This document shows positions 8,490 through 52,462 of a DNA stretch of 64,000 nucleotides, piece by piece. The number at the start of each line of letters is the position of its first letter. The stretch's first letter is position 1. Under the pieces are notes generated by a model that was not told the origin of the DNA, searched no databases, and saw only the letters and a program-made list of their open reading frames with translations. The stretch spans positions 125,632 through 189,631 of the forward strand of contig JBAZFG010000002.1 in NCBI GenBank assembly GCA_041653515.1, written 5' to 3'. Origin of the DNA: Candidatus Nanoarchaeia archaeon. GTDB taxonomy: Archaea > Nanobdellota > Nanobdellia > WJKC01. Position numbers and translations under genes: made by a program.

Positions 8490-9173
8490 TTACTTTAAAT
8501 GATCCTTGAACTTGAAATAATTACTCGGGGTCCCAATGTCAATATAATAACCTTCGTATACTTCAGTCCGCATACCTTGTTTAATCAATAATGGGAATAC
8601 TTCTTTTTCAAAACTACTATTGCTAGCAGGTAATAAATCAAGCACACTTCTTTTTAGTAACAAGATGCCGGCGTTCATGAACTTATCATCCTCTGTTGGT
8701 TTCTCAGGCCGCTCTTTCAAGCCAGCAATCAGTCCAGCCTCATTAATTTTAATAATAGTCACTTGAGTAGGATTAACAGTCTTTGTTATAACCATAGTGT
8801 TCATTCCTGTTTTATTGAAGTTTTTTTTGAGTTTTTCATAGTCAAGCTCGTGATAATTATCACCATTAATGAGAATGAAGTCATCATCAATCAATTCTTC
8901 AGCATTCTTAATAGCGCCGCCAGTGCCGAGCGGCTCTGTTTCATCAGAGTACTTAATGTTCGCGCCCCACTTACTGCCGTCGCCGAAATAGTTCTTTATT
9001 ACGTCGCTTTTGTAACCTGTTAGGATTATTATTTCATCAAAGTGTTCTTTTAACTGGATTACTAAGTACTCGATTAATGGCTTGCCATTAAACTCAGCCA
9101 TTGGTTTTGGCCTGTCATTAACAATATCCTTTAGCCTCGTGCCCATGCCGCCAGCGAGGATGACTGCTTTCAT
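8490..9173 (-). CDS. Sugar-1-phosphate nucleotidyltransferase (HddC/ManC-like short form)
   Basis: N-terminal MKAVILAGGMGTRL (GxGTRL pyrophosphorylase signature); 227 aa single-domain form. Confidence 0.8.
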   Translation of the reverse strand: MKAVILAGGMGTRLKDIVNDRPKPMAEFNGKPLIEYLVIQLKEHFDEIIILTGYKSDVIKNYFGDGSKWGANIKYSDETEPLGTGGAIKNAEELIDDDFILINGDNYHELDYEKLKKNFNKTGMNTMVITKTVNPTQVTIIKINEAGLIAGLKERPEKPTEDDKFMNAGILLLKRSVLDLLPASNSSFEKEVFPLLIKQGMRTEVYEGYYIDIGTPSNYFKFKDHLK

Positions 9174-12862: not shown

Positions 12863-14770
12863 TTGTGTAGTTTAAGTTGTTTAATGAGGCGGGAGCATTT
12901 ATTATTATTGCTAATTTTGTTGCTTGGCGCTGGCTTGCGTTTGTATTCGTTGCGCAATGAATACTTCACTGGTAATGACGCGTTCATTCATTATAGTGTT
13001 ATCAGGCAGGCCTTGGTTGATGGCAACTTAGTTACTTATGAGCTTAGTTATGGTAATCCTGTTATTCTTGAGCCGTTGGGCTTTTATTTAGTGACACTTA
13101 TCCCATCATTTGTTCTTGGGCTTGACATAGCTTTCCTGTTAATGCCTGTGTTGTCTGGCGTGCTGTGCCTGCTGGTTGCTTATTACTTGTTAAGGGATTT
13201 GTTTGGCGAGCGAGCGGCTTTGATTGCAGTGCTGTTATTATCCTTGTCAATGGCTCATATTTACCGCACGAGCGCTAACACTTATCGGGGTGATGGTTTC
13301 TTCCTGACTGCTTTCTTGTTAACGCTTTATTATTTCAATAAGTCACTTAAGGCATCAGTTAAGTATTCAGTAGTTACTGGCTTGTTAATGACTCTTTGCG
13401 CTTCCTTGTGGAATGGTTATCCATTAGGCGTGATTGTTATTATCAGTGGTTTGATAATTAATTCAACTCTTAAGTTCTTGAAGAATGATTTTGCTAAAAA
13501 GGATTTGACTAATATTTTTGCTTTATTAGTGACTTATTATTTCACTGAGTTAATTCTTATTTTGACTGGCGTTACTAAGCGTTTGTTTTTCACGAGCAAT
13601 AACGCTGTTCACGCGGTCATTACTTTTGCGCCTTTGTTTATTGGGGTGATTTATTATTTCACTAAGCGCGTTAAGAAGTCAAGTGTTCTTGGCGTGCTGG
13701 CGGTTGTTGGGGTAGTCTTGTTGTTGTTGAATATTAATACAGTTTCATCGTTAGTGGCTCAGTCATTGTTTGAGAATACTTTGTTCTATGAAGTTGGTGT
13801 TAGTGAATTATTGCCGCCAACTTTTGATTTGTTGAGCGCGATGCTATCATGGTCTCTTTTCCTGATGTGGCCTGGCTTGTTGTTATTAGTGTTGCTAATC
13901 CTGAAGAAGCGTGACGCGCGCCATATTACTTTTCTTGTTTGGTCAGTTATAACAATTTACTTGATGCTTAATTACTCGCGTTATAATTTCATTGTATCAG
14001 TCAGCGCCGCTGCCTTGTCCGCACTGTTCATTAATTATCTTTATTTAAAGGCAGAGCAGTATCGTAAGAACGCTGGTCTTGTGCTGGTCTTAGTTCTTGT
14101 CCTGCTTTATGTGTTTGTTATTCCTTTAACAGGGTCTGTCACTAATTTGTTTAATAATCTTAACAGTGTTAGTCCGCGCGTGAATGCAGAGTGGGCTGAT
14201 GCCTTGACTTGGATGAGAGATAATCTTGAGCCTGACTTAACTGTTACTTGGTGGGACCATGGCTCTTGGGTTCAGTATTTTGCTGGTTTTCCCACAATTG
14301 CTGATAGTGTTACTGGTCAGGATATTGGCCGGATTACTCGAGTGGCTCAATTCTTGATGACTGCTAAGAATGATACTTTTAGTGACCTTGGCGCTAAGTA
14401 CTTAGTCTTGGGGGCTGATGACGTTCTTTATTCTAATGCAATTGTTAGTATTGCTGATGTTAGGGGTTTTGAGATGTATGGGCTTGACAGTGGTTATTTC
14501 CAATCAAATGATGATGAGTTGTATTTTATTAGCGGCGACCTTGTGCTCGCGCCTCGTTTCGTGTTCTTTGCTAATCAGTCAATTCCGTTGATAGAGTCTA
14601 ATGGCACTGGTTGTTTGATGATTAATTATCTTGAGCCAAGGCCTTATTTATTATTCCTTAATGATTATGCTTGCAATACTAATTATGCTCAATTAATGTT
14701 TGGTCTGGGCTTGCCTGGTTTTGAATTATTGTATCAGAATGATTATGTAGTTGTTTATAGGATTGAATGA
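12863..14770 (+). CDS. Short AglB/STT3-like oligosaccharyltransferase paralogue (variant WWDHG motif)
   Basis: Thirteen or so TM segments followed by TVTWWDHGSWVQYFAG (WWDYG-type motif). First-loop acidic motif GNDAFIHY. The likely true start is the ATG at 12884. Confidence 0.65.
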   Translation: MCSLSCLMRREHLLLLLILLLGAGLRLYSLRNEYFTGNDAFIHYSVIRQALVDGNLVTYELSYGNPVILEPLGFYLVTLIPSFVLGLDIAFLLMPVLSGVLCLLVAYYLLRDLFGERAALIAVLLLSLSMAHIYRTSANTYRGDGFFLTAFLLTLYYFNKSLKASVKYSVVTGLLMTLCASLWNGYPLGVIVIISGLIINSTLKFLKNDFAKKDLTNIFALLVTYYFTELILILTGVTKRLFFTSNNAVHAVITFAPLFIGVIYYFTKRVKKSSVLGVLAVVGVVLLLLNINTVSSLVAQSLFENTLFYEVGVSELLPPTFDLLSAMLSWSLFLMWPGLLLLVLLILKKRDARHITFLVWSVITIYLMLNYSRYNFIVSVSAAALSALFINYLYLKAEQYRKNAGLVLVLVLVLLYVFVIPLTGSVTNLFNNLNSVSPRVNAEWADALTWMRDNLEPDLTVTWWDHGSWVQYFAGFPTIADSVTGQDIGRITRVAQFLMTAKNDTFSDLGAKYLVLGADDVLYSNAIVSIADVRGFEMYGLDSGYFQSNDDELYFISGDLVLAPRFVFFANQSIPLIESNGTGCLMINYLEPRPYLLFLNDYACNTNYAQLMFGLGLPGFELLYQNDYVVVYRIE

Positions 14771-16073
14771 GCTGGACGTATTCTTCTAATGCTTTGTCTG
14801 CTATTAGTCTTTCTTCTGCTTCAATGAATACTTTAACTGTGTGCCTAGTCTGGCTTGGTCTTAATAATACGCTTACTTCATCTGGCCTTGTGAATTTGAT
14901 GCCGTCCATTGTTAGTGCTTGAGTGTTTTCTTGCATTAACCGGTTGATTATTTTGGCCGCGACTTCTTCTTTCTCTTGATGAGTGCTAAACTCAACTTCT
15001 TCTTTGATGACAACTACTTTTGGTAGTTCATCTATTAACTCGCTTAGTTTTTTGCCTGTTTCTTTTATTATTCGCGCCATCATGAGAACGCTTAACGCGC
15101 CATCGCTGAAGGGGTAGTATTCATTCCAGTAGAAATGACTGCTTTCCTCGCCGCCGAATAACCCTTTTTGTTTGACTAATTCTTTTTCAATGAAAGTGTG
15201 ACCAACCTTGCACCAAACCATTGTTCCGCCCATTGGCTTGACTATTTTTGTTTCAATAACGCTTGAAACGCTTGGCGGAGCCACTATTACTCCTTTCTTT
15301 TTTTTGAGTATTTCTTTTGTGAATAACATTGTCATCATGTTACCGTCTATTACTCGGCCTTTATCATCAACGAACACGCTGCGGTCTCCATCCCCATCAA
15401 GTCCTGCGCCAAAGCTGGCGTTTTCACTCAATACTCTTTCCTGTAATTCATGTAAGTTCTTTTCTGATGGCTCTGGACTTTTCCCACCAAAGTCTGATTT
15501 TGGCTCATTGTTTAGGACTGTTGCGTCTAATAATTTATTGAACACACTATTAGTTAATGCGCCAGTACTGCCATTAAGGCAGTCAATAACGCATTTAACT
15601 TCTATTCGGCCAAACTCTTTTTCGAGGAATCGGGCGTAATCATTAGTGGCAGTAATATCTTGTTTTACTGAAGCGCTCTCTACTTTGTTGAAGTTATAAT
15701 TATTGAATAATTCCCTGACTTCTTTTAGTTCTTCTGGCGCAATGCCTGAGCCATCCCTCATTATTATTTTAAAGCCGTTATACTCTTTTGGTAAGTGTGA
15801 GGCTGTGATGAACACGCCAAAATCATAAGTATTTAGTATTTTATAATAGCACACTGGTCCAGGCATAAAACCGCCTTTTGTTACGTTAATGCCTGATGAG
15901 CGTAATCCTTCAATTAAGTGCTCGCCTAGTGCTGGGCTTGATTCCCTGCAATCCCACCCAATAAAACAAGTGCCTTTTAGTTTGGTGCCGAGCGCTCGGC
16001 CAAGAATGAACGACTGGTGCGTCGTGATGCCCCTCCCCCTGACGTCGTACGCCATAAAAATCTCCTCCTTCAA
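14679..16073 (-). CDS. Phosphomannomutase / phosphoglucomutase
   Basis: Active-site TASHLP and the metal-binding loop GLDGDGDR. The 3' end overlaps the convergent gene by 92 nt. Confidence 0.85.
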   Translation of the reverse strand: MKEEIFMAYDVRGRGITTHQSFILGRALGTKLKGTCFIGWDCRESSPALGEHLIEGLRSSGINVTKGGFMPGPVCYYKILNTYDFGVFITASHLPKEYNGFKIIMRDGSGIAPEELKEVRELFNNYNFNKVESASVKQDITATNDYARFLEKEFGRIEVKCVIDCLNGSTGALTNSVFNKLLDATVLNNEPKSDFGGKSPEPSEKNLHELQERVLSENASFGAGLDGDGDRSVFVDDKGRVIDGNMMTMLFTKEILKKKKGVIVAPPSVSSVIETKIVKPMGGTMVWCKVGHTFIEKELVKQKGLFGGEESSHFYWNEYYPFSDGALSVLMMARIIKETGKKLSELIDELPKVVVIKEEVEFSTHQEKEEVAAKIINRLMQENTQALTMDGIKFTRPDEVSVLLRPSQTRHTVKVFIEAEERLIADKALEEYVQLIQSYKQLHNHSDTIIQNQASPDQTLIEHN

Positions 16074-16078
16074 TTAGT

Positions 16079-17236
16079 TCACACCCAGTACTTACTGTTT
16101 TCCAGTTCCTCCTTGTCTTCATTGTATACAATGTTGCCGTCAATAATGCCGCTTGCTTTTAGGAATGGCCAGACTGTTGAGCCTTTAATTAAGTTTGAGT
16201 TCTCTTCTATAACGCTTTTATAACCAATCACGCAGAAGTCATTGATCTTCACGTTGTTTTTAATTACTGTTGTGCCGTCAATGATGCTGTTGTTAATTAT
16301 TGATTTCTGGCCTATGTGAGCGTTATCAAATATCACGCTTCCTTTGATGATTGAGCCCTCGCCTACTGTGACATCATGCATTAAGTGAGTGTTTGGGCCA
16401 ATAACGCAGTTCTTGCCAATAATGCACCCTTCTTCTATGATGACTTTGCCTTTGATTTCAGTGCCTTCTTTTATTACTGTGTTCTCGTGAATTATTGAGT
16501 TTTTTAGTTCGCTCATAACTTTATTGTTTAATTCAATGTAACCTCTTGGTGTTCCAATATCTGCCCAGTCACCTTTAAATTTGAAGCCGTGTAATGTGTC
16601 TTTTTCACAGAAGTACTGCCACATACTGCCAATAGTGTCAATGTTTTGGTTTTCATTAATGTATTCTGGTAATTTTTTATCAACCCATCCTTTGCTAAGA
16701 CCATATATTAGTGTGCTACCCAGTTGTGAGCGCGCTTCATCTGCTCTTGGTTTCTCTTGGAATGATGTTATAATATTGTTTTTTAGTTCTGCGACGCCAA
16801 ATAATTCAACCATGTATTTGTGGGGTAATTCGTATAATGCTATTGTTGCGCTGCTTGGTTTTATTGATTTACTAAACTCTTTTAAGTCAAGTCCATTAAT
16901 GTAATTATCCGCGCCTAGTATTATGAAATCATCACTGCCAACTTTTCCTACAGCATAATTAAGTCCTCCAACACTGCCTAGTTTGCCTTCTTCTTGGTTC
17001 TCAATTATTATGTTAACTTTCTTGTTAATTAGGAAGTCATTAATTTTTAGTTGTTTGTTATTAATGCTGACATAAATTTCATTAATTCCTGCTTCGTTTA
17101 GTTTGTTGATTAAGTGAATGATATTTGGCACGCCTGCTATTGGTAGTAAGCATTTAGGTGTTCTTAGTGTTAGTGGGTGTAATCTTGTTCCGCCGCCGCC
17201 TGCTAGTATTAGTGCTTTCACTGAACGCCACCCCAT
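16079..17236 (-). CDS. Bifunctional-type sugar-1-phosphate nucleotidyltransferase with C-terminal left-handed beta-helix domain (GlmU/archaeal ST0452-like)
   Basis: KALILAGGGGTRLHPLT at the N-terminus. The C-terminal half has hexapeptide-like repeats (IGKNCVIGPN, VGEGSIIKGSVI). The likely real start is GTG at 17221, forming a GTGA overlap with the upstream stop. Confidence 0.8.
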   Translation of the reverse strand: MGWRSVKALILAGGGGTRLHPLTLRTPKCLLPIAGVPNIIHLINKLNEAGINEIYVSINNKQLKINDFLINKKVNIIIENQEEGKLGSVGGLNYAVGKVGSDDFIILGADNYINGLDLKEFSKSIKPSSATIALYELPHKYMVELFGVAELKNNIITSFQEKPRADEARSQLGSTLIYGLSKGWVDKKLPEYINENQNIDTIGSMWQYFCEKDTLHGFKFKGDWADIGTPRGYIELNNKVMSELKNSIIHENTVIKEGTEIKGKVIIEEGCIIGKNCVIGPNTHLMHDVTVGEGSIIKGSVIFDNAHIGQKSIINNSIIDGTTVIKNNVKINDFCVIGYKSVIEENSNLIKGSTVWPFLKASGIIDGNIVYNEDKEELENSKYWV

Positions 17237-18051
17237 TCCCTGATAGCCCTCTCGTAACGCTCTGTGTTATCGGTTGGGAGCCATTGGCCTTCGAATGGGT
17301 AACCGTTTAGTTTGCCTTTTTCCTGTATTTTTGGGAAGATGTCATATTCCATTGAGGTAGGGCCTGTTTCATTAATCATGCTGATTATTGATGGGTCAAG
17401 CACGTACACGCCTGCGTTGATTAGTTTACTTACTGGTTCAGTTGGTTTCTCAATGAAATTAGTTATTACTGGGCCTTTTAGTAATGCGACGCCAAAGCTT
17501 GATGGGTCATCAACAGTTGTTAGTGCGATTGTTGCTTGACCTCCATTCTTTCGGTGGAAGTCAAATAAGCTTTCAATATCAATGTTAACTAAGTTGTCGC
17601 CGTTAAGCATTATGAATGGTTCGTTTAGCCATTCTTTGGCTAACCTGAGACAACCTGCTGTTCCTAATGGTTCATCTTCCATTATATATCTTAGTTTGAC
17701 TCCGAACTTGCTGCCGTCTCCAAAGTAATCTTTTACTTTTTCGCCAAGGTACCCGACAGATAGTGTTATGTCGCGAACTTCGTGCTTCCGGAGGAGGCTT
17801 ATTGTGTGTTCGATTAATGGTCTTCCTTGAACAGGTACCATTGGCTTGGGTATTTCGTAAGTTATTGGTCTGAGGCGTGTTCCTTTGCCGCCTGCTAGTA
17901 TTAGTGCTTTTTTAGGGCTTTTTCTGTCAAGGGCTTTTCTTAGTAAAAATTCAATAGCGTGACTGCGGTTCCTAATGCGGACGCCGTCAACAAAAGCATC
18001 AATATCATTTGTAAGTGATTGGTCGACTGTTATAGTGATTCTATCACGCAT
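17218..18051 (-). CDS. Sugar-1-phosphate nucleotidyltransferase fused to an N-terminal ribbon-helix-helix (CopG-like) domain
   Basis: Residues 1-45 (RITITVDQSLTNDIDAFVDG...RNRSHAIEFLLRKAL) have a strand-helix-helix pattern. They are followed by KALILAGGKGTRLRPIT. Confidence 0.75.
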   Translation of the reverse strand: MRDRITITVDQSLTNDIDAFVDGVRIRNRSHAIEFLLRKALDRKSPKKALILAGGKGTRLRPITYEIPKPMVPVQGRPLIEHTISLLRKHEVRDITLSVGYLGEKVKDYFGDGSKFGVKLRYIMEDEPLGTAGCLRLAKEWLNEPFIMLNGDNLVNIDIESLFDFHRKNGGQATIALTTVDDPSSFGVALLKGPVITNFIEKPTEPVSKLINAGVYVLDPSIISMINETGPTSMEYDIFPKIQEKGKLNGYPFEGQWLPTDNTERYERAIREWGGVQ

Positions 18052-18074
18052 AAAGAGTATGAAAAAGTATTACT

Positions 18075-19508
18075 TTATATACATTTTGTCTTTTTGGCAT
18101 ACAATAAGCTAATTATTTTTTTAATTAACTTAGTGATAAAACCCCTATCCTGCTTGTCAAGCACTTTATAGTAAACCATGAGCGCGTAAAAGACTGCTGC
18201 TAGGCTAAATAAAAGTATTTTCATTATTGGTCCAGTATAAACATTAACCACTATTATTAGTGGCAATGCGCTGATTAATGACTTAACATAACTAACCCAA
18301 TTATGTTTGACATACTTACGCTGTGTTACACTCATTATTATCAGTGCGCTAACCATTAAACCAGTAAATATTATTGATGCGTTAAAAGCATTAATTAAAT
18401 AACTGCTTAGTGCTATGGTGATAATTACTTTTATTATTGAAATCCATAAAACTATTCTCGGCTTGCCTGTGCCATAAGTAATTGATTCATATATCTGATA
18501 AAAAGCCATTGCTGATAAGCCAATAGCCATTACTCTAAAAACACTTATCATCCCCAAGTACTCGCTGCCTAATAATAATGTTATGATAAAATTAGATGCT
18601 GAGAAAAAAATAGTTGCTATTGGCAAAGCGTAAATGAAAACATACTTCATGAACCGGCCGGTTAATTCTTTTATTTCCTCTTTTTTCTTATTAATAATGC
18701 TTGGCAGTAACGCGCTACTGATTGCGCCTGAGATTAATAAAATAAACAATCCTGCTTTGTTTGATAAGTCAAAGAAACTAAGCTCACTTGAATTAAAACC
18801 CAAGTATAAGTTCATCAAATAATTTGATAATGTCATAAAAATTGATGTGAAAAACATTGTTGTTGAGTACTTTAATAATTCTTTTCTCTCAGTAAACTCA
18901 CTGCCTTTGCTTAACTTATTGTAAATGACTGCATAAGCAAATAATACTGTTATTAAGTAACTAATGCCATAACCAATCACTGCGCCAGTGATTCCAAGAC
19001 CAATTATTATTAAGAGTAATGACGCAAACTTTGTGGCACTAAACAATAAGTCAACGTTCATGTAATGCTTCAAATTATTAAACCCTTGAAATATGTAGTA
19101 AGAAATATTCATTAATATGAAGAATGGGATAAACAACGCTGTTAATCTTAAATAACTGCCTAGTTCAGTATTGTTGTAAAAAACACCAATATAATCTGCT
19201 GCTACAAACACTGCTATAGCTGTTATTACACCAATTATTAACCTAACACTTATAATTTTCTTAACTAAACTAGCCATTTGCTCCTTATACTTCTGCATGA
19301 AATAAGGGAGCCCATGCTCTAAACCAAGAGTTGTTAGTTGGTGTGATAATGTTAGTATTGTAATTACTAAAGCGAAAGTTCCGTAATCAGTTGGGCCAAG
19401 TAATCTGGCAAGAAAGAATATTAATACCATTGATAGCACTGTGCTAACTGACTTACCTATTAAGTGCCAAGTAGCGTTCTTACCTACTTTCTTGATTACT
19501 TCTTCCAT
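18075..19508 (-). CDS. Wzx-like oligo/polysaccharide flippase (MOP superfamily)
   Basis: 477 aa, about 12-14 TM segments. The N-terminus (LARLLGPTDYGTFAL) is typical of polysaccharide biosynthesis protein / Wzx families. Confidence 0.7.
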   Translation of the reverse strand: MEEVIKKVGKNATWHLIGKSVSTVLSMVLIFFLARLLGPTDYGTFALVITILTLSHQLTTLGLEHGLPYFMQKYKEQMASLVKKIISVRLIIGVITAIAVFVAADYIGVFYNNTELGSYLRLTALFIPFFILMNISYYIFQGFNNLKHYMNVDLLFSATKFASLLLIIIGLGITGAVIGYGISYLITVLFAYAVIYNKLSKGSEFTERKELLKYSTTMFFTSIFMTLSNYLMNLYLGFNSSELSFFDLSNKAGLFILLISGAISSALLPSIINKKKEEIKELTGRFMKYVFIYALPIATIFFSASNFIITLLLGSEYLGMISVFRVMAIGLSAMAFYQIYESITYGTGKPRIVLWISIIKVIITIALSSYLINAFNASIIFTGLMVSALIIMSVTQRKYVKHNWVSYVKSLISALPLIIVVNVYTGPIMKILLFSLAAVFYALMVYYKVLDKQDRGFITKLIKKIISLLYAKKTKCI

Positions 19509-20312: not shown

Positions 20313-21041
20313 ATGATTAATAAAGCTGTTATTCTTGCCGGCGGTAAGGGAACCCGCATCGCTAACCCTGACATGCCTAAAGCCATGATTAAACTTAACG
20401 GAACCCCGATACTCGAAAACACCCTGCAATTGCTCGGCGGCTGCGGCATTAACGAGGTATTCATGTTAGTCCATTACCTTAAAGAGCAGATTATTGGTTA
20501 CTTTGGCAGTGATTTTAATGGAATGAAAATTAATTATGTCAACGTTCATGAAATCTTGAAATATGACCAGCCTATTGGTATCGCTGACGTGCTCGGCGTA
20601 ATGGATGGCCGCATTAACGAGCCATTCTTAATGATTCTTGGCGATGAAGTTTACGCTGGCACTAAGCACCCTGATATGCTTAAATCATTTAATCCTGTTT
20701 ATGACGCGATGATTGGTGTCATGCGCACTACTGATGAGCGCGCAATAAAGAAGAATTATACTCTGCGGGTTGATGATGCCTTTAATGTCACTGACCTTGA
20801 AGAGAAGCCTGATGCGCCTTGGAATGACTTGCTTGGCTGCGGCACTTACATCTTTACCCCTAAGGTCTTTGATTATATCAGGCAGACACCGTTGTCTGCT
20901 AAGAGCGGCCGCCGAGAGATTACTGACACGCTTAAGGTGATTGCGGCTAATGGCTTGCTCGCTGCCTTTGACCTTGGCGGCAGTTACGTCAATATTAATT
21001 ATAAAGAAGACATTGCCCTTGCTGAAAAACTTTTTAAGTAG
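20313..21041 (+). CDS. Sugar-1-phosphate nucleotidyltransferase
   Basis: KAVILAGGKGTRI signature; 242 aa single-domain form. Confidence 0.8.
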   Translation: MINKAVILAGGKGTRIANPDMPKAMIKLNGTPILENTLQLLGGCGINEVFMLVHYLKEQIIGYFGSDFNGMKINYVNVHEILKYDQPIGIADVLGVMDGRINEPFLMILGDEVYAGTKHPDMLKSFNPVYDAMIGVMRTTDERAIKKNYTLRVDDAFNVTDLEEKPDAPWNDLLGCGTYIFTPKVFDYIRQTPLSAKSGRREITDTLKVIAANGLLAAFDLGGSYVNINYKEDIALAEKLFK

Positions 21042-23286: not shown

Positions 23287-24356
23287 TACTTTATTGTGTA
23301 AGGCCTCATTGACTGGGTCATCTTGTAGATTGCTTCCTGCTGTTCTTTTGGGTAAGCATCTGATTGTGGTTTGGCGTGCTCGCCATAAAAAGTCATGTCT
23401 GCCCGGCTATCATCAGTTGGCGGGATAAAATAAGAGAAGTGGCCGTTGACGCCTTCATTTTTAACCCACTCAACGTTCGCTAGGTCACTCTTGTATGTTG
23501 AGCCCGGCAAGCCAATGATGAAATAACAATTAACACTCCTGAAGTATTTTTTCGCAATCCTGACCGCTTTCTTCACTTGTTCTGGTTTCAAGCCTTTCTT
23601 AATGTTCTTTAATACAACCAGACTTAGGCTCTCCACCCCGAAACTAACGTGATTGCAGCCGGAGCCTGAGATTGCCTTGGCTTGCTCCTTGTTGAATAAG
23701 TCAGCGCGCAAGCCGTTGGTGCAAAACCACTTTAAGTTTAATGGTTTTATCAATTCGCAAAACTCAATAACCCTCTTGTTGACTGCGTTAAAGCAGTCAT
23801 CAATTATCTGAAATGACTTAATGTCATACTCCTTTTTTGCTTTCTTTATTTCTTCATAACAATTCTTGGCGCTTCTCATCCTTAAACGCCTGTTCCTTGA
23901 CGCGCAGTAAATGCACTGGAACGGGCAGCCAAGGCTCGTCAGCACTGGGTAAGCCCACTTGCCGCTTGACCAGTTATCCCTGAACGTCTCGTATGAGTCA
24001 AATAGGGAGTAATCAGGGAATGGCAGTTTGTCATTAAAATCATTGTTAATGTTAACATTGCTCTTGAATTGGTTGAATGGGTAGCAGCACTGGACGTCAA
24101 CAACCCCTGTCACTGACTTGACTCTTGATTTTGGGTGAGCCCGCTTGTACTCAGCCTTTATCCTTTTACTTTCATTGTAAGCGGCTGAGCGGATTGAGAT
24201 TAGTGCTGTGTCATCATTAACTTTTAAGTACCTTTTTTTTGGTTTTTGCTTAGTATTAAGGTCAATTACCCGGCTTTTCTTGAGCGTGGCAATGTAAGCA
24301 AGGCTCATGTTTGGCAGGTCCCTGTTAATCCCAGAATTAGGGTTTATCAGTATCAT
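23247..24356 (-). CDS. Radical SAM enzyme with reduced B12-binding-like N-terminal domain
   Basis: CxxxCxxC in LGCPFQCIYCAS. N-terminus MILINPN...SLAYIATL resembles the start of class B enzymes. Overlaps the convergent DUF362 gene by 40 nt. Confidence 0.7.
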   Translation of the reverse strand: MILINPNSGINRDLPNMSLAYIATLKKSRVIDLNTKQKPKKRYLKVNDDTALISIRSAAYNESKRIKAEYKRAHPKSRVKSVTGVVDVQCCYPFNQFKSNVNINNDFNDKLPFPDYSLFDSYETFRDNWSSGKWAYPVLTSLGCPFQCIYCASRNRRLRMRSAKNCYEEIKKAKKEYDIKSFQIIDDCFNAVNKRVIEFCELIKPLNLKWFCTNGLRADLFNKEQAKAISGSGCNHVSFGVESLSLVVLKNIKKGLKPEQVKKAVRIAKKYFRSVNCYFIIGLPGSTYKSDLANVEWVKNEGVNGHFSYFIPPTDDSRADMTFYGEHAKPQSDAYPKEQQEAIYKMTQSMRPYTIKYYLRRLLKKVLNK

Positions 24357-25465
24357 TTTTTCCTGACCGTTTTTTTGTAGATTGAGCAGTTAGCGCATGG
24401 GGCTGGCACTTTGCCTTTCCTTAAGCCTTCCCTTAATTCTTTGTAGTCCTTCCCAAACCAAATCTCTTTTAGTGAAAGTTCCTTAATGTTGCCAAGCGAT
24501 GTTTTCTTCTGGAAATCCCTTTGATTGGCCTCGTTTCCGACGCAGCAGGGAATAACATGTCCTGTTACGAATACGAAAGGCATTATCCATTCAATGCACT
24601 TATCCATTGGTTCCTTGTCATCTGGTACGTTGGCCCCATAGTGCATTCTTATACCATAAGAATTGGCCTTAGCCTTGACTTGCCTAAAATAAGTGTTAGG
24701 CACTTTAGTTACGAGGTTCTTTATCTCCTTGAATGGGTGTAATAATAATGTGTATATGACTTTAACGTCATCATTCATCTTAATGCTGTTAACGTAGTCC
24801 ATGAATAACGGCACTTCCTTGACGTTTATTTTGTTGACAATGAAGTGAAAGTTGACTTCCGGGAATGGTTTTTTCATTTCCTTTTTTAGTTCTATTAGCT
24901 TCTTGATGTTCTTTGTTACTACGTCAAAATTTGAGCCAACCCTTATTTTCTCGTAAGTCTCCTTTGTGGCTCCGTCAATCGAAGCCAGTATCCTATCAAC
25001 TCCTAATTCAATCAGTTTTCTTGCAATCTTTTCATTGAGGAAGATAAATGAGTCATATATCTCGACGTATATCTTCTTTTTCTTGACGTACTCTATCATC
25101 TTAAGGTAATCTTTATTTAGGAACGCTTCCCCTATCCCTGTCAGACCTATCCATTTCAAGTGTGGGAACTGGTCAATTATTCTCTTAAATTCCTCAAAGT
25201 TCATGTCCCTTGCGGGTTCACTCCAGTACGTGTGCTCGCATATTTTGCATTTGAGGTTGCACTTGGTTGTGACTTCTATTTCCATGAAAGGGGGGGTTAT
25301 ATTAAAGAACCTGCCAAGTTTTATTAGTAGCAGGTTGCTCCAGAATTTTGATTGCCATAATAAGTAGAACCATGTGTAATTATATGTTGCTTTTAGTCCT
25401 TGATGCCTTAACATGTTGTAAATAAATTTTGAGTACCTCTTGACTTTCATTATTACCTGTTTCAT
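24353..25465 (-). CDS. Radical SAM enzyme with C-terminal SPASM/twitch-like Cys-rich domain
   Basis: CNLKCKICEH cluster motif. C-terminal GHVIPCCVG...LGNIKELSLKEIW...CANCSIY. Confidence 0.75.
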   Translation of the reverse strand: MKQVIMKVKRYSKFIYNMLRHQGLKATYNYTWFYLLWQSKFWSNLLLIKLGRFFNITPPFMEIEVTTKCNLKCKICEHTYWSEPARDMNFEEFKRIIDQFPHLKWIGLTGIGEAFLNKDYLKMIEYVKKKKIYVEIYDSFIFLNEKIARKLIELGVDRILASIDGATKETYEKIRVGSNFDVVTKNIKKLIELKKEMKKPFPEVNFHFIVNKINVKEVPLFMDYVNSIKMNDDVKVIYTLLLHPFKEIKNLVTKVPNTYFRQVKAKANSYGIRMHYGANVPDDKEPMDKCIEWIMPFVFVTGHVIPCCVGNEANQRDFQKKTSLGNIKELSLKEIWFGKDYKELREGLRKGKVPAPCANCSIYKKTVRKK

Positions 25466-25490
25466 TATGATCTTTTATGATTATTTTCTT

Positions 25491-51748: not shown

Positions 51749-51782
51749 AGTTTTTAAACCAATCATTGTTTTCTTTTCTTTC

Positions 51783-52025
51783 ATGGGTCGAATAAGAACT
51801 AATGAGATAAAGACAATAACTAAACTTGTTGTTGATAAATATGGATTAGATTCATTCTCTGATGATTTTGATAAGAATAAAGAATCCTTGAAGTCATTGG
51901 CAGAGGAGTTCCCGAGCCATCAAGTATTGAATAAAGTGGCTGGTTGCATAGTTAATTTAGTTAAGGATGCTAGGATTGAAGCCAAAGCCCTTGCAGCGCC
52001 CTCAGTGGTTAATGAGGATGAGTGA
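51783..52025 (+). CDS. rps17e: Ribosomal protein eS17
   Basis: MGRIRTNEIKTITKLVVDKY N-terminus; 80 aa. Confidence 0.85.
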   Translation: MGRIRTNEIKTITKLVVDKYGLDSFSDDFDKNKESLKSLAEEFPSHQVLNKVAGCIVNLVKDARIEAKALAAPSVVNEDE

Positions 52026-52132
52026 TTACTAAAATTTATAAATAATAAAGTCTATTATTATTTTTTATGAAAACTAAATGTGATTGTCTCTGGCAATGAT
52101 TTAGTTAGTCTTACTCTTAGTGGTGTTTTCTT

Positions 52133-52462
52133 ATGATTGACTTGCGCGAGTTTTATGGTGTTTTTAGCGAGCAAGTAGTGCGCGCGTATGATTGTGCTCC
52201 TGATAAGTATGTGACTAAGTCAATTAATGATGGTTTGATTGTTTATGACTTTGTTAGTTTTGATTCAATTGACTTAAAAATATTGGCTGGTACTAAGCGC
52301 TCAATGAAGGAGTTAATTAACCCAATTAGTTGTTGTAATTTATTCATTAAAGTTCCTGCAAGTCTTGATGGTTATATTAGTGATTTGGAGTCAATTGGTT
52401 TTAAGGTTCAAGCTGGCAAAGACTTATTATTACTCAGGCGCTTAGGTGATAGTAATGGCTGA
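52133..52462 (+). CDS. Hypothetical protein
   Basis: Intact ORF overlapping the trpS start by 17 nt. No recognisable domain. Confidence 0.35.
   Translation: MIDLREFYGVFSEQVVRAYDCAPDKYVTKSINDGLIVYDFVSFDSIDLKILAGTKRSMKELINPISCCNLFIKVPASLDGYISDLESIGFKVQAGKDLLLLRRLGDSNG

Follow-up and report, generated by a model that had tools for sequence, protein, structure and literature searches.

A 64,000-nucleotide (nt) stretch of a Candidatus Nanoarchaeia archaeon genome (assembly GCA_041653515.1, contig JBAZFG010000002.1, positions 125,632 to 189,631; hereafter the window) encodes a protein in which an N-terminal ribbon-helix-helix (RHH) domain is joined to a sugar-1-phosphate nucleotidyltransferase (NTase) domain. 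Comparative analysis of this protein, which we call RHH-NTase, points to a one-component transcription regulator made of a NikR-type RHH and a sugar-1-phosphate NTase domain. The protein is very probably a sequence-specific DNA-binding autoregulator. We also think it likely, taking the statement as a whole and leaving the ligand open, that it is an autorepressor of the sugar-nucleotide supply operon that it heads and probably an enzyme as well. A wider proposal, put forward tentatively and with somewhat less than even confidence, is that RHH-NTases constitute an unrecognised family of regulators in DPANN archaea and Patescibacteria that respond to nucleoside diphosphate (NDP)-sugars and place a NikR-type head on GTATGA repeats phased at 10 nt; members of the window type would still be working pyrophosphorylases that repress their own supply operon, and those of most lineages would be pseudoenzyme sensors. 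The gene and its domains are as follows.

17218-18051, minus strand: RHH-NTase gene, from the open reading frame (ORF) listing; 277 amino acids, ATG start.
17917-18051, minus strand: RHH domain, residues 1-45; strand R4-I-T6-I-T8, helix A 11-19, turn DG...NRS, helix B 29-42.
17254-17910, minus strand: sugar-1-phosphate NTase domain, residues 48-266; PF00483, E 3.4e-46, 158.3 bits against a cutoff of 21.2; short form.
17866-17892, minus strand: nucleotide-binding signature loop G54-G-K-G-T-R59-L-R-P62; intact, and invariant in the window clade.

The translated protein begins MRDRITITVDQSLTNDIDAFVDGVRIRNRSHAIEFLLRKAL, identical to the residues quoted in an earlier sequence-only reading of the stretch, which named no strand. 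Its first 45 or so residues form the strand-helix-helix unit characteristic of the RHH superfamily of the CopG/Arc/MetJ type. The segment matched Pfam RHH_1 (PF01402) over the full length of the model (1-39 of 39) with 17.6 bits and E 0.004, the gathering threshold being 20.5, and the same model was matched by 29 of 34 family members at E≤0.1 (best, 1.1e-6). NCBIfam NikR models were matched at E 5e-6, over residues 3-44 only and far under their cutoff (26.8 against 175). Because residues 48-266 are an NTP_transferase domain and the NikR models cover only residues 3-44, below cutoff, the protein is not a NikR. A profile built from 34 orthologous N-termini matched the DNA-binding domain of Escherichia coli NikR at E 1.2e-6 over 43 residues, with the R-x-T-x-T strand aligned opposite NikR R3-T5-T7 and NRSHAIE opposite NRSEAIR. 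We take NikR R3, T5 and T7 to contact bases in the NikR-operator structure. AlphaFold models, one of the whole protein (pLDDT 91) and one of the domain alone (pLDDT 87), have an extended segment followed by helices at residues 11-19 and 29-42, as an RHH monomer would look before strand pairing in the dimer.

The sequence-only reading had assigned the first 45 or so residues to an RHH domain joined to a complete GxGTRL nucleotidyltransferase. Profile searches and the AlphaFold model agree with the first part of this assignment, the two helices being modelled at pLDDT 87-91 rather than as a disordered or differently folded segment; the ORF, the Pfam match and an intact GGKGTRLRP...PK agree with the second. 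That reading had also raised the possibility of a downstream start giving an N-terminus at KKALILAGG. More than 120 homologues of full length (53-79% identity, 97-100% coverage) preserve the N-terminal domain as protein, which shows that it is translated and is no chance ORF extension; the downstream start was rejected because archaea and bacteria alike conserve this domain as protein. A toxin-antitoxin arrangement, in which an RHH antitoxin would be combined with a 'nucleotidyltransferase' toxin, was also rejected, the C-terminal domain being a sugar pyrophosphorylase of GT-A fold and not a Pol-beta-type NTase. In public data, a 100% identical protein from a Candidatus Nanoarchaeia metagenome-assembled genome (MAG) is labelled only 'sugar phosphate nucleotidyltransferase'.

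The survey of this architecture suggested by the sequence-only reading showed that it is widespread and not a single occurrence. A search of one genome per GTDB species with the RHH word [IV]RNRSHAIE gave 418 confirmed loci in DPANN archaea and Patescibacteria, of which 80, all selected through this word, were analysed in detail and provided 78 full-length proteins and non-redundant genes. On the archaeal side these 80 loci belong to Nano-, Micr-, Parv-, Undin-, Aenigm-, Iain- and Altiarchaeota; the others belong to many lineages of Patescibacteria, such as Roizman-, Gottesman-, Uhr- and Saccharibacteria. All 78 full-length proteins, with total lengths of 256-291 amino acids, combine the RHH with an NTase-like domain of approximately 230 amino acids. 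At E≤1e-3, an RHH-only profile search made without the word index detected 978 representatives of 50%-identity clusters; with few exceptions, the representatives above 200 amino acids carry an NTase-like domain, and the short ones resemble contig-end fragments. This RHH subtype is thus essentially dedicated to the NTase fusion. Database labels present members of the family as plain nucleotidyltransferases, and literature searches found no published description of an RHH-NTase fusion. Regulators that combine an RHH with a domain for ligand binding or catalysis are already known, NikR and PutA being examples; what appears undescribed is the NTase as partner, the family as such, the operator word proposed for it and its distribution over DPANN archaea and Patescibacteria.

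Two further observations concern membership. A subclass of approximately 210 amino acids (L041:2995-3624, L058:2995-3633, P0249, P0254-P0256, P0264 and P0267) has the same RHH with only the C-terminal part of the NTase-like domain, from profile position ~32 or ~82 to ~207. Members of Patescibacteria or Micrarchaeota type are also found in ten MAGs labelled 'uncultured Gammaproteobacteria' or 'Saccharimonadales' (L024, L030, L037, L040, L048, L050, L062, L071, L081 and L083), whose taxonomic labels or binning look unreliable.

Many genes of this family share an upstream word. All hexamers in the 150 nt upstream of the 78 non-redundant genes were ranked without prior assumption, and GTATGA/TCATAC was the top hexamer, occurring in 41 of the 78 regions and in 6.3% of control windows; the 8-mer TATCATAC was enriched 28-fold. 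Exact hexamer sites numbered 72, against 6.4±2.5 in 500 dinucleotide-preserving shuffles (maximum 15), and 25 loci had at least two exact sites where 0.3 were expected. Archaeal and bacterial loci, tested separately, had 43 sites against 3.3 and 29 against 3.2. Per kilobase (kb), the intergenic DNA upstream of the family genes contained 6.43 sites, the remaining intergenic DNA of these loci 1.22 and coding DNA 0.50. The sites occur in both orientations, in two to five copies and at variable distances from the start; of 31 cases of neighbouring sites, 16 are direct repeats with a 10-nt step, and inverted pairs are spaced by 11 or 21 nt. L009, for example, has three TCATAC at 10-nt steps followed by two degenerate copies, L060 and L066 have three GTATGA at 11-nt steps, and the palindrome GTATGATAGTATCATAC lies upstream in L076. 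The operator of E. coli NikR is GTATGA-N16-TCATAC (PMC7055735), so the enriched hexamer is identical to the NikR half-site; as NikR is also the closest characterised head, the reading head and the upstream word agree. Additional tandem sites precede NDP-sugar epimerase genes in L031 and L043 and, in L049 and L055, lie within a TTGACA...TATGAT promoter just downstream of the regulator gene. Among the matches listed in a reverse search of metagenome contigs for GTATGA-N4-GTATGA-N4-GTATGA, most were 10-nt satellites, and none of the 80 loci sampled from them had an RHH-NTase gene; the search is uninformative on the family and shows that the array is not exclusive to RHH-NTase genes. TCATAC triplets at 10-nt steps with non-identical spacers were seen at L118:5252-5277 and L158:1840-1865, on contigs of 55-56% G+C without an RHH-NTase gene, and could be operators of other NikR-like RHH proteins.

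In the window, RHH-NTase lies within a glycan cluster of approximately 25 kb that contains an AglB/STT3-like transferase, a flippase-like protein, many glycosyltransferases of GT1, GT2 and GT4, a UDP-GlcNAc 2-epimerase and four NTases. The features of its operon and promoter are listed here.

16079-17221, minus strand: second operon gene, NTase with a left-handed beta-helix (GlmU/GMPP-like); Pfam NTP_transferase, Hexapep and GMPPB_C; GTG start within a GTGA overlap.
14679-16073, minus strand: third operon gene, phosphoglucomutase/phosphomannomutase (PGM/PMM); PGM_PMM_I-III; begins 5 nt after gene 2.
18074-18081, minus strand: TATA-like box TATATAAA, -30 to -23 from the ATG; overlaps the stop codon of the upstream flippase-like gene.
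18067-18072, minus strand: predicted operator repeat 1, TAATAC; one mismatch to TCATAC.
18057-18062, minus strand: predicted operator repeat 2, TCATAC (GTATGA on the plus strand), -11 to -6 from the ATG; 10 nt from repeat 1.

RHH-NTase ends in a stop codon (TGA, 17220-17218) overlapping the GTG (17221-17219) with which the second NTase gene opens. These coordinates bear out the GTGA overlap with a second, GlmU-like NTase described in the sequence-only reading. The second protein begins MKALILAGGGGTRL, contains an NTP_transferase domain and hexapeptide repeats in Pfam, and from this GTG is 380 amino acids long, equal to its orthologue in L002. An NTase gene directly follows RHH-NTase in L002 and L084-L087, with a hexapeptide domain in four of the five (not L085). 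The trio of RHH-NTase, NTase and PGM/PMM is constant, each gene start either overlapping the preceding gene by 1-8 nt or following it after a few nt; the gene upstream varies, being flippase-like or, in L085, a glycosyltransferase. Because the trio is constant while the upstream gene varies, it appears to form a separate unit under a promoter of its own.

On the gene strand this promoter reads ATG-TATATAAA-G-TAATAC-TTTT-TCATAC-TCTTT-ATG, where the TATA-like box is the presumed promoter element and the two predicted repeats together span -21 to -6; GTAATA, overlapping repeat 1, may alternatively be taken for an inverted half-site, at a distance of 11 nt from repeat 2. The box and the repeats are conserved in eight related loci, and sequence further upstream is not. 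Repeat 2 is conserved in L002, L004, L005, L084, L085 and L087, L086 having TCTTAC at that place, and L084-L087 have a third repeat, TCATAT, overlapping the ATG. From the spacing of the TATA-like box, transcription would start at or next to the ATG, so that the mRNA is likely leaderless and the repeats would lie within the initiation region. Repeat 2 is the only exact hexamer at a promoter position in the glycan cluster of the window, and the pair is the only paired site with at most one mismatch within 80 nt upstream of any of the 51 window genes. Over the whole window the hexamer is not above chance (27 against 28.3), nor are paired sites (2 against 5.3 expected). The sequence-only reading had proposed autoregulation of the glycan cluster. 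For the gene and its own operon this proposal is strengthened by the phased GTATGA/TCATAC repeat, conserved in archaea and bacteria; its extension to the entire cluster found no support, the hexamer count being at chance and the promoter pair being the gene's own.

Two other places in the window bear related words. The only other paired site, GTATGA-N15-GTATGT at 52186-52212, may be due to chance and lies within a stretch of approximately 700 nt (51749-52445) with no ORF of at least 110 amino acids and no tRNA. At 25466-25481, TCATAA-N4-TCATAA occupies the last 16 or so nt before the ATG of a radical-SAM/SPASM gene (24353-25465, minus strand); this pair has two mismatches, lies in a 25-nt gap and has the same position as the RHH-NTase operator.

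The NTase domain of the window protein retains the features of an enzyme. Profile matches in the PDB were tlr0611 (8x7s), GMPPB (7d72) and VTC1 (7x8j), at E 1e-58 to 1e-62, and Foldseek aligned the domain with the GDP-mannose/UDP-glucose pyrophosphorylases tlr0611 (8x7s), VTC1 (7x8k) and GMPPB (7d72) at TM 0.72-0.79 and 33-38% identity. No solved structure spanning both the RHH and the NTase domain was found among the PDB and fold matches, and the window protein has no C-terminal beta-helix. GGKGTRLRP...PK69, D152 and E201-K202-P203 are all present and invariant in the window clade: G54, G55, G57, R59, P62, K69, D152, E201, K202 and P203 do not vary over 41 sequences with 53-79% identity to the window protein. 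Since every NCBIfam equivalog model is below its cutoff (equivalog and exception models: man1P_GTase 186 against 440, rmlA_long 171 against 320, Arch_glmU 171 against 292), the sugar and the nucleotide were left unassigned. Across the wider family the picture is different. The following retention counts refer to the 78 full-length proteins from GTDB loci.

R4, RHH reading strand: kept in 77 of 78.
T6, RHH reading strand: kept in 71 of 78, with Ser in the other 7.
T8, RHH reading strand: kept in 78 of 78.
T58, catalytic loop: kept in 19 of 78.
R59, catalytic loop: kept in 22 of 78.
D152, NTase domain: kept in 78 of 78.
K202, E-K-P motif: kept in 67 of 78.
W257, NTase domain: kept in 78 of 78.

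In the N-terminal domain alignment of the window clade T8, D18, D22, G23, R29, S30, A32 and E34 vary little or not at all. Among the 78 proteins, the constancy of N28-E34 is an artefact of selecting loci by the word [IV]RNRSHAIE, outside which R4, T6, T8, D18 and D22 lie. Micrarchaeota have the entire catalytic loop replaced, for example by GGTIIKGPNG, the loop of most Patescibacteria reads GGxG(L/V)(N/K)xRP, and most of the RHH-profile cluster representatives show the same loss. Because the reading residues are nearly invariant while R59 is kept in so few proteins, most family members look like sensors that have lost the catalytic loop. Our reading is that the family is first of all one of regulators, whose NTase domain would bind a ligand related to sugar nucleotides. 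The window protein is probably still an enzyme too, making an NDP-sugar, as every catalytic residue is kept in its clade. GMPPA, which is non-catalytic, binds GDP-mannose, controls its paralogue GMPPB and feeds back on synthesis (PMC11228364), offers a precedent for an NDP-sugar sensor of NTase fold.

Proteins of the RHH superfamily bind specific sequences as dimers whose two-stranded antiparallel sheet enters the major groove of DNA, and the conserved R-x-T-x-T strand and the phased GTATGA repeats lend indirect support to such binding here. These observations suggest the following mechanism. RHH dimers would read TCATAC/GTATGA hexamers through R4, T6 and T8 and occupy successive TCATAC repeats on one face of the DNA, held together by the NTase domains, whose ligand occupancy would set the geometry or affinity of the dimers. 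As the repeats at 18072-18057 lie between the TATA-like box and the start codon, protein bound there should block transcription initiation. The repressed targets would be the gene itself, the NTase with left-handed beta-helix and the PGM/PMM, which together make up a sugar-nucleotide supply module. The NTase domain would provide the signal, its NDP-sugar product (or its substrates) changing the presentation of the RHH dimers and thereby giving feedback control; we favour the product as co-repressor because simple feedback results. What the analysis shows directly is the fusion, its fold, the NikR-like reading residues, the family, the enriched and phased motif, the conserved promoter and the decayed catalytic loop; that RHH-NTase binds DNA, represses rather than activates, responds to a ligand in a particular direction and is enzymatically active is inferred from these. 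The window protein would then be enzyme and repressor in one, comparable to PutA or BirA, and the architecture, the operator-like site at its own operon and the intact catalytic residues all fit a PutA-like logic; most of its relatives in Micrarchaeota and Patescibacteria, with the catalytic loop lost, would be sensors only.

Several points weigh against an autorepressor of this kind. The window sequence alone scores under the gathering threshold of RHH_1, and its promoter has one exact and one near-exact repeat, without the third repeat of its relatives. The exact hexamer is absent within 150 nt in approximately half of the 78 upstream regions, including most loci of Gottesmanbacteria type, and in an Asgard relative (L003) the strand reads K-x-S-x-T and no motif is apparent. 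Bacterial GTATGAT overlaps the -10-like TATGAT, so that some bacterial sites could be promoter elements. DNA binding is deduced from comparative genomics, and the ligand, the direction of regulation and the oligomeric state proposed here are conjectural.

One alternative is that the NTase domain of the window protein serves only as a ligand sensor, without meaningful NDP-sugar synthesis, while the RHH binds the TCATAC repeats. Loss of the GxGTR loop in most of the family, redundancy of the enzyme with the three other NTases of the cluster (8490-9173, 16079-17221 and 20313-21041) and the example of GMPPA would all accommodate a pure regulator, but the catalytic residues show, over the 41 sequences of the window clade, the invariance expected of an active enzyme, and the similarity of the domain to characterised GDP-mannose/UDP-glucose pyrophosphorylases (33-38% identity) points the same way; we consider this alternative unlikely. 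The reverse simplification is a plain enzyme with an RHH that is an oligomerisation or stabilising appendage without specific DNA binding, the hexamers belonging elsewhere. Although such a protein would agree with the enzyme-only database annotation, the sub-threshold RHH_1 score and the lack of other paired promoter sites in the window, an appendage leaves unexplained the members with a destroyed enzyme loop and an intact RHH. Moreover, conservation within the family is highest at R4, T6 and T8, above that of the catalytic loop, and the top enriched word in two domains of life is the half-site of the closest characterised RHH, which makes a plain enzyme highly improbable.

It might also be argued that GTATGA/TCATAC is a core promoter feature or the site of another factor, for example a true NikR, and that RHH-NTase binds other DNA. 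The -10-like TATGAT contained in GTATGAT could be cited for this, as could the triple GTATGA arrays, which are common elsewhere as 10-nt satellites and were near an RHH-NTase gene in none of the 80 loci sampled. The enrichment, however, is no weaker in archaea, where -10 boxes do not occur; the sites vary in orientation, copy number and distance from the start; and other intergenic DNA of the same loci, promoters included, has an approximately five-fold lower density. The motif tracks the gene across phyla, and a separate factor would need to co-occur everywhere. We give this explanation only a very slight chance and retain the autorepressor that reads the repeats at its own promoter.

Proteins joining a DNA-binding domain to an enzyme are known. 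PutA is an RHH fused to proline dehydrogenase/P5C (pyrroline-5-carboxylate) dehydrogenase, and BirA and NadR combine an enzyme, in NadR a nicotinamide mononucleotide adenylyltransferase, with a DNA-binding domain of helix-turn-helix type. RHH-NTase differs from all three in its enzyme class, a sugar-1-phosphate nucleotidyltransferase, and in that its family appears to have lost the enzyme function in most lineages; unlike BirA and NadR, it uses an RHH. NikR (PDB 1q5v, 2hzv) is the best match in sequence and fold, with an N-terminal RHH preceding a larger ligand-binding domain, an R-x-T-x-T strand, a helix that starts NRS(E/H)AI and the half-site GTATGA, which is the upstream hexamer here. The C-terminal domain of NikR, however, is an ACT-like nickel-binding tetramerisation domain rather than a GT-A-fold sugar nucleotidyltransferase, its sites form an inverted pair with a 16-nt separation whereas those of the RHH-NTase family are mostly direct repeats 10 nt apart, and its context is nickel uptake rather than glycan synthesis. 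With the GDP-mannose/UDP-glucose pyrophosphorylases (VTC1 7x8k, GMPPB 7d72, tlr0611 8x7s, RmlA) the window protein shares the catalytic fold and all signature residues, but none of these has an RHH, and the window protein is without the GMPP-type C-terminal beta-helix. The Micrarchaeota and Patescibacteria members resemble GMPPA (PMC11228364), a sensor of NDP-sugar, in having an NTase fold with a degraded catalytic loop; GMPPA acts on its enzyme partner by protein contact, whereas the output proposed here is DNA binding through the fused RHH.

PGM/PMM is the commonest neighbour across the family, at 14 loci and mostly downstream on the same strand, followed by canonical NTases at 11 loci and NDP-sugar epimerases at nine; in Patescibacteria, undecaprenyl-diphosphate synthase and mevalonate-pathway genes are found nearby. 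In the window, a 13-kb part of the glycan cluster contains four NTP_transferase genes (8490-9173, 16079-17221, 17218-18051 and 20313-21041). The PGM/PMM ORF of the window, at 464 amino acids, is approximately 24 longer at its C-terminus than its orthologues (439-441) and shares 92 nt (14679-14770) with the 3' end of the AglB/STT3-like ORF that converges on it. Ten Micrarchaeota loci contain a protein of 303 amino acids (L079:3956-4867 and nine related), often beside a canonical NTase and usually divergent from the regulator gene across a repeat-bearing intergenic region; it has no Pfam match even at E 0.1. Directly downstream of the regulator gene, on the opposite strand, eleven Patescibacteria loci, L081:3469-3783 among them, have one to three T4SS-pilin-like genes (PF18895).

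DPANN archaea and Patescibacteria have tiny genomes with few recognisable regulators, and surface glycans are thought to be central to their attachment to hosts. To our knowledge, almost no regulator-operator pairs have been experimentally defined in these organisms. The RHH-NTase family offers a concrete, testable regulator whose reading head is known and whose operator word and targets (PGM/PMM, NTases and NDP-sugar epimerases) are predicted, as well as a natural series from active enzyme to pseudoenzyme sensor. Many annotations of 'sugar phosphate nucleotidyltransferase' probably denote transcription factors, which matters for metabolic reconstructions of both groups. If our reading is true, the family would provide some of the first sequence-defined pairs of regulator and operator for these regulator-poor, ultrasmall organisms, and would capture an enzyme turning into a sensor.

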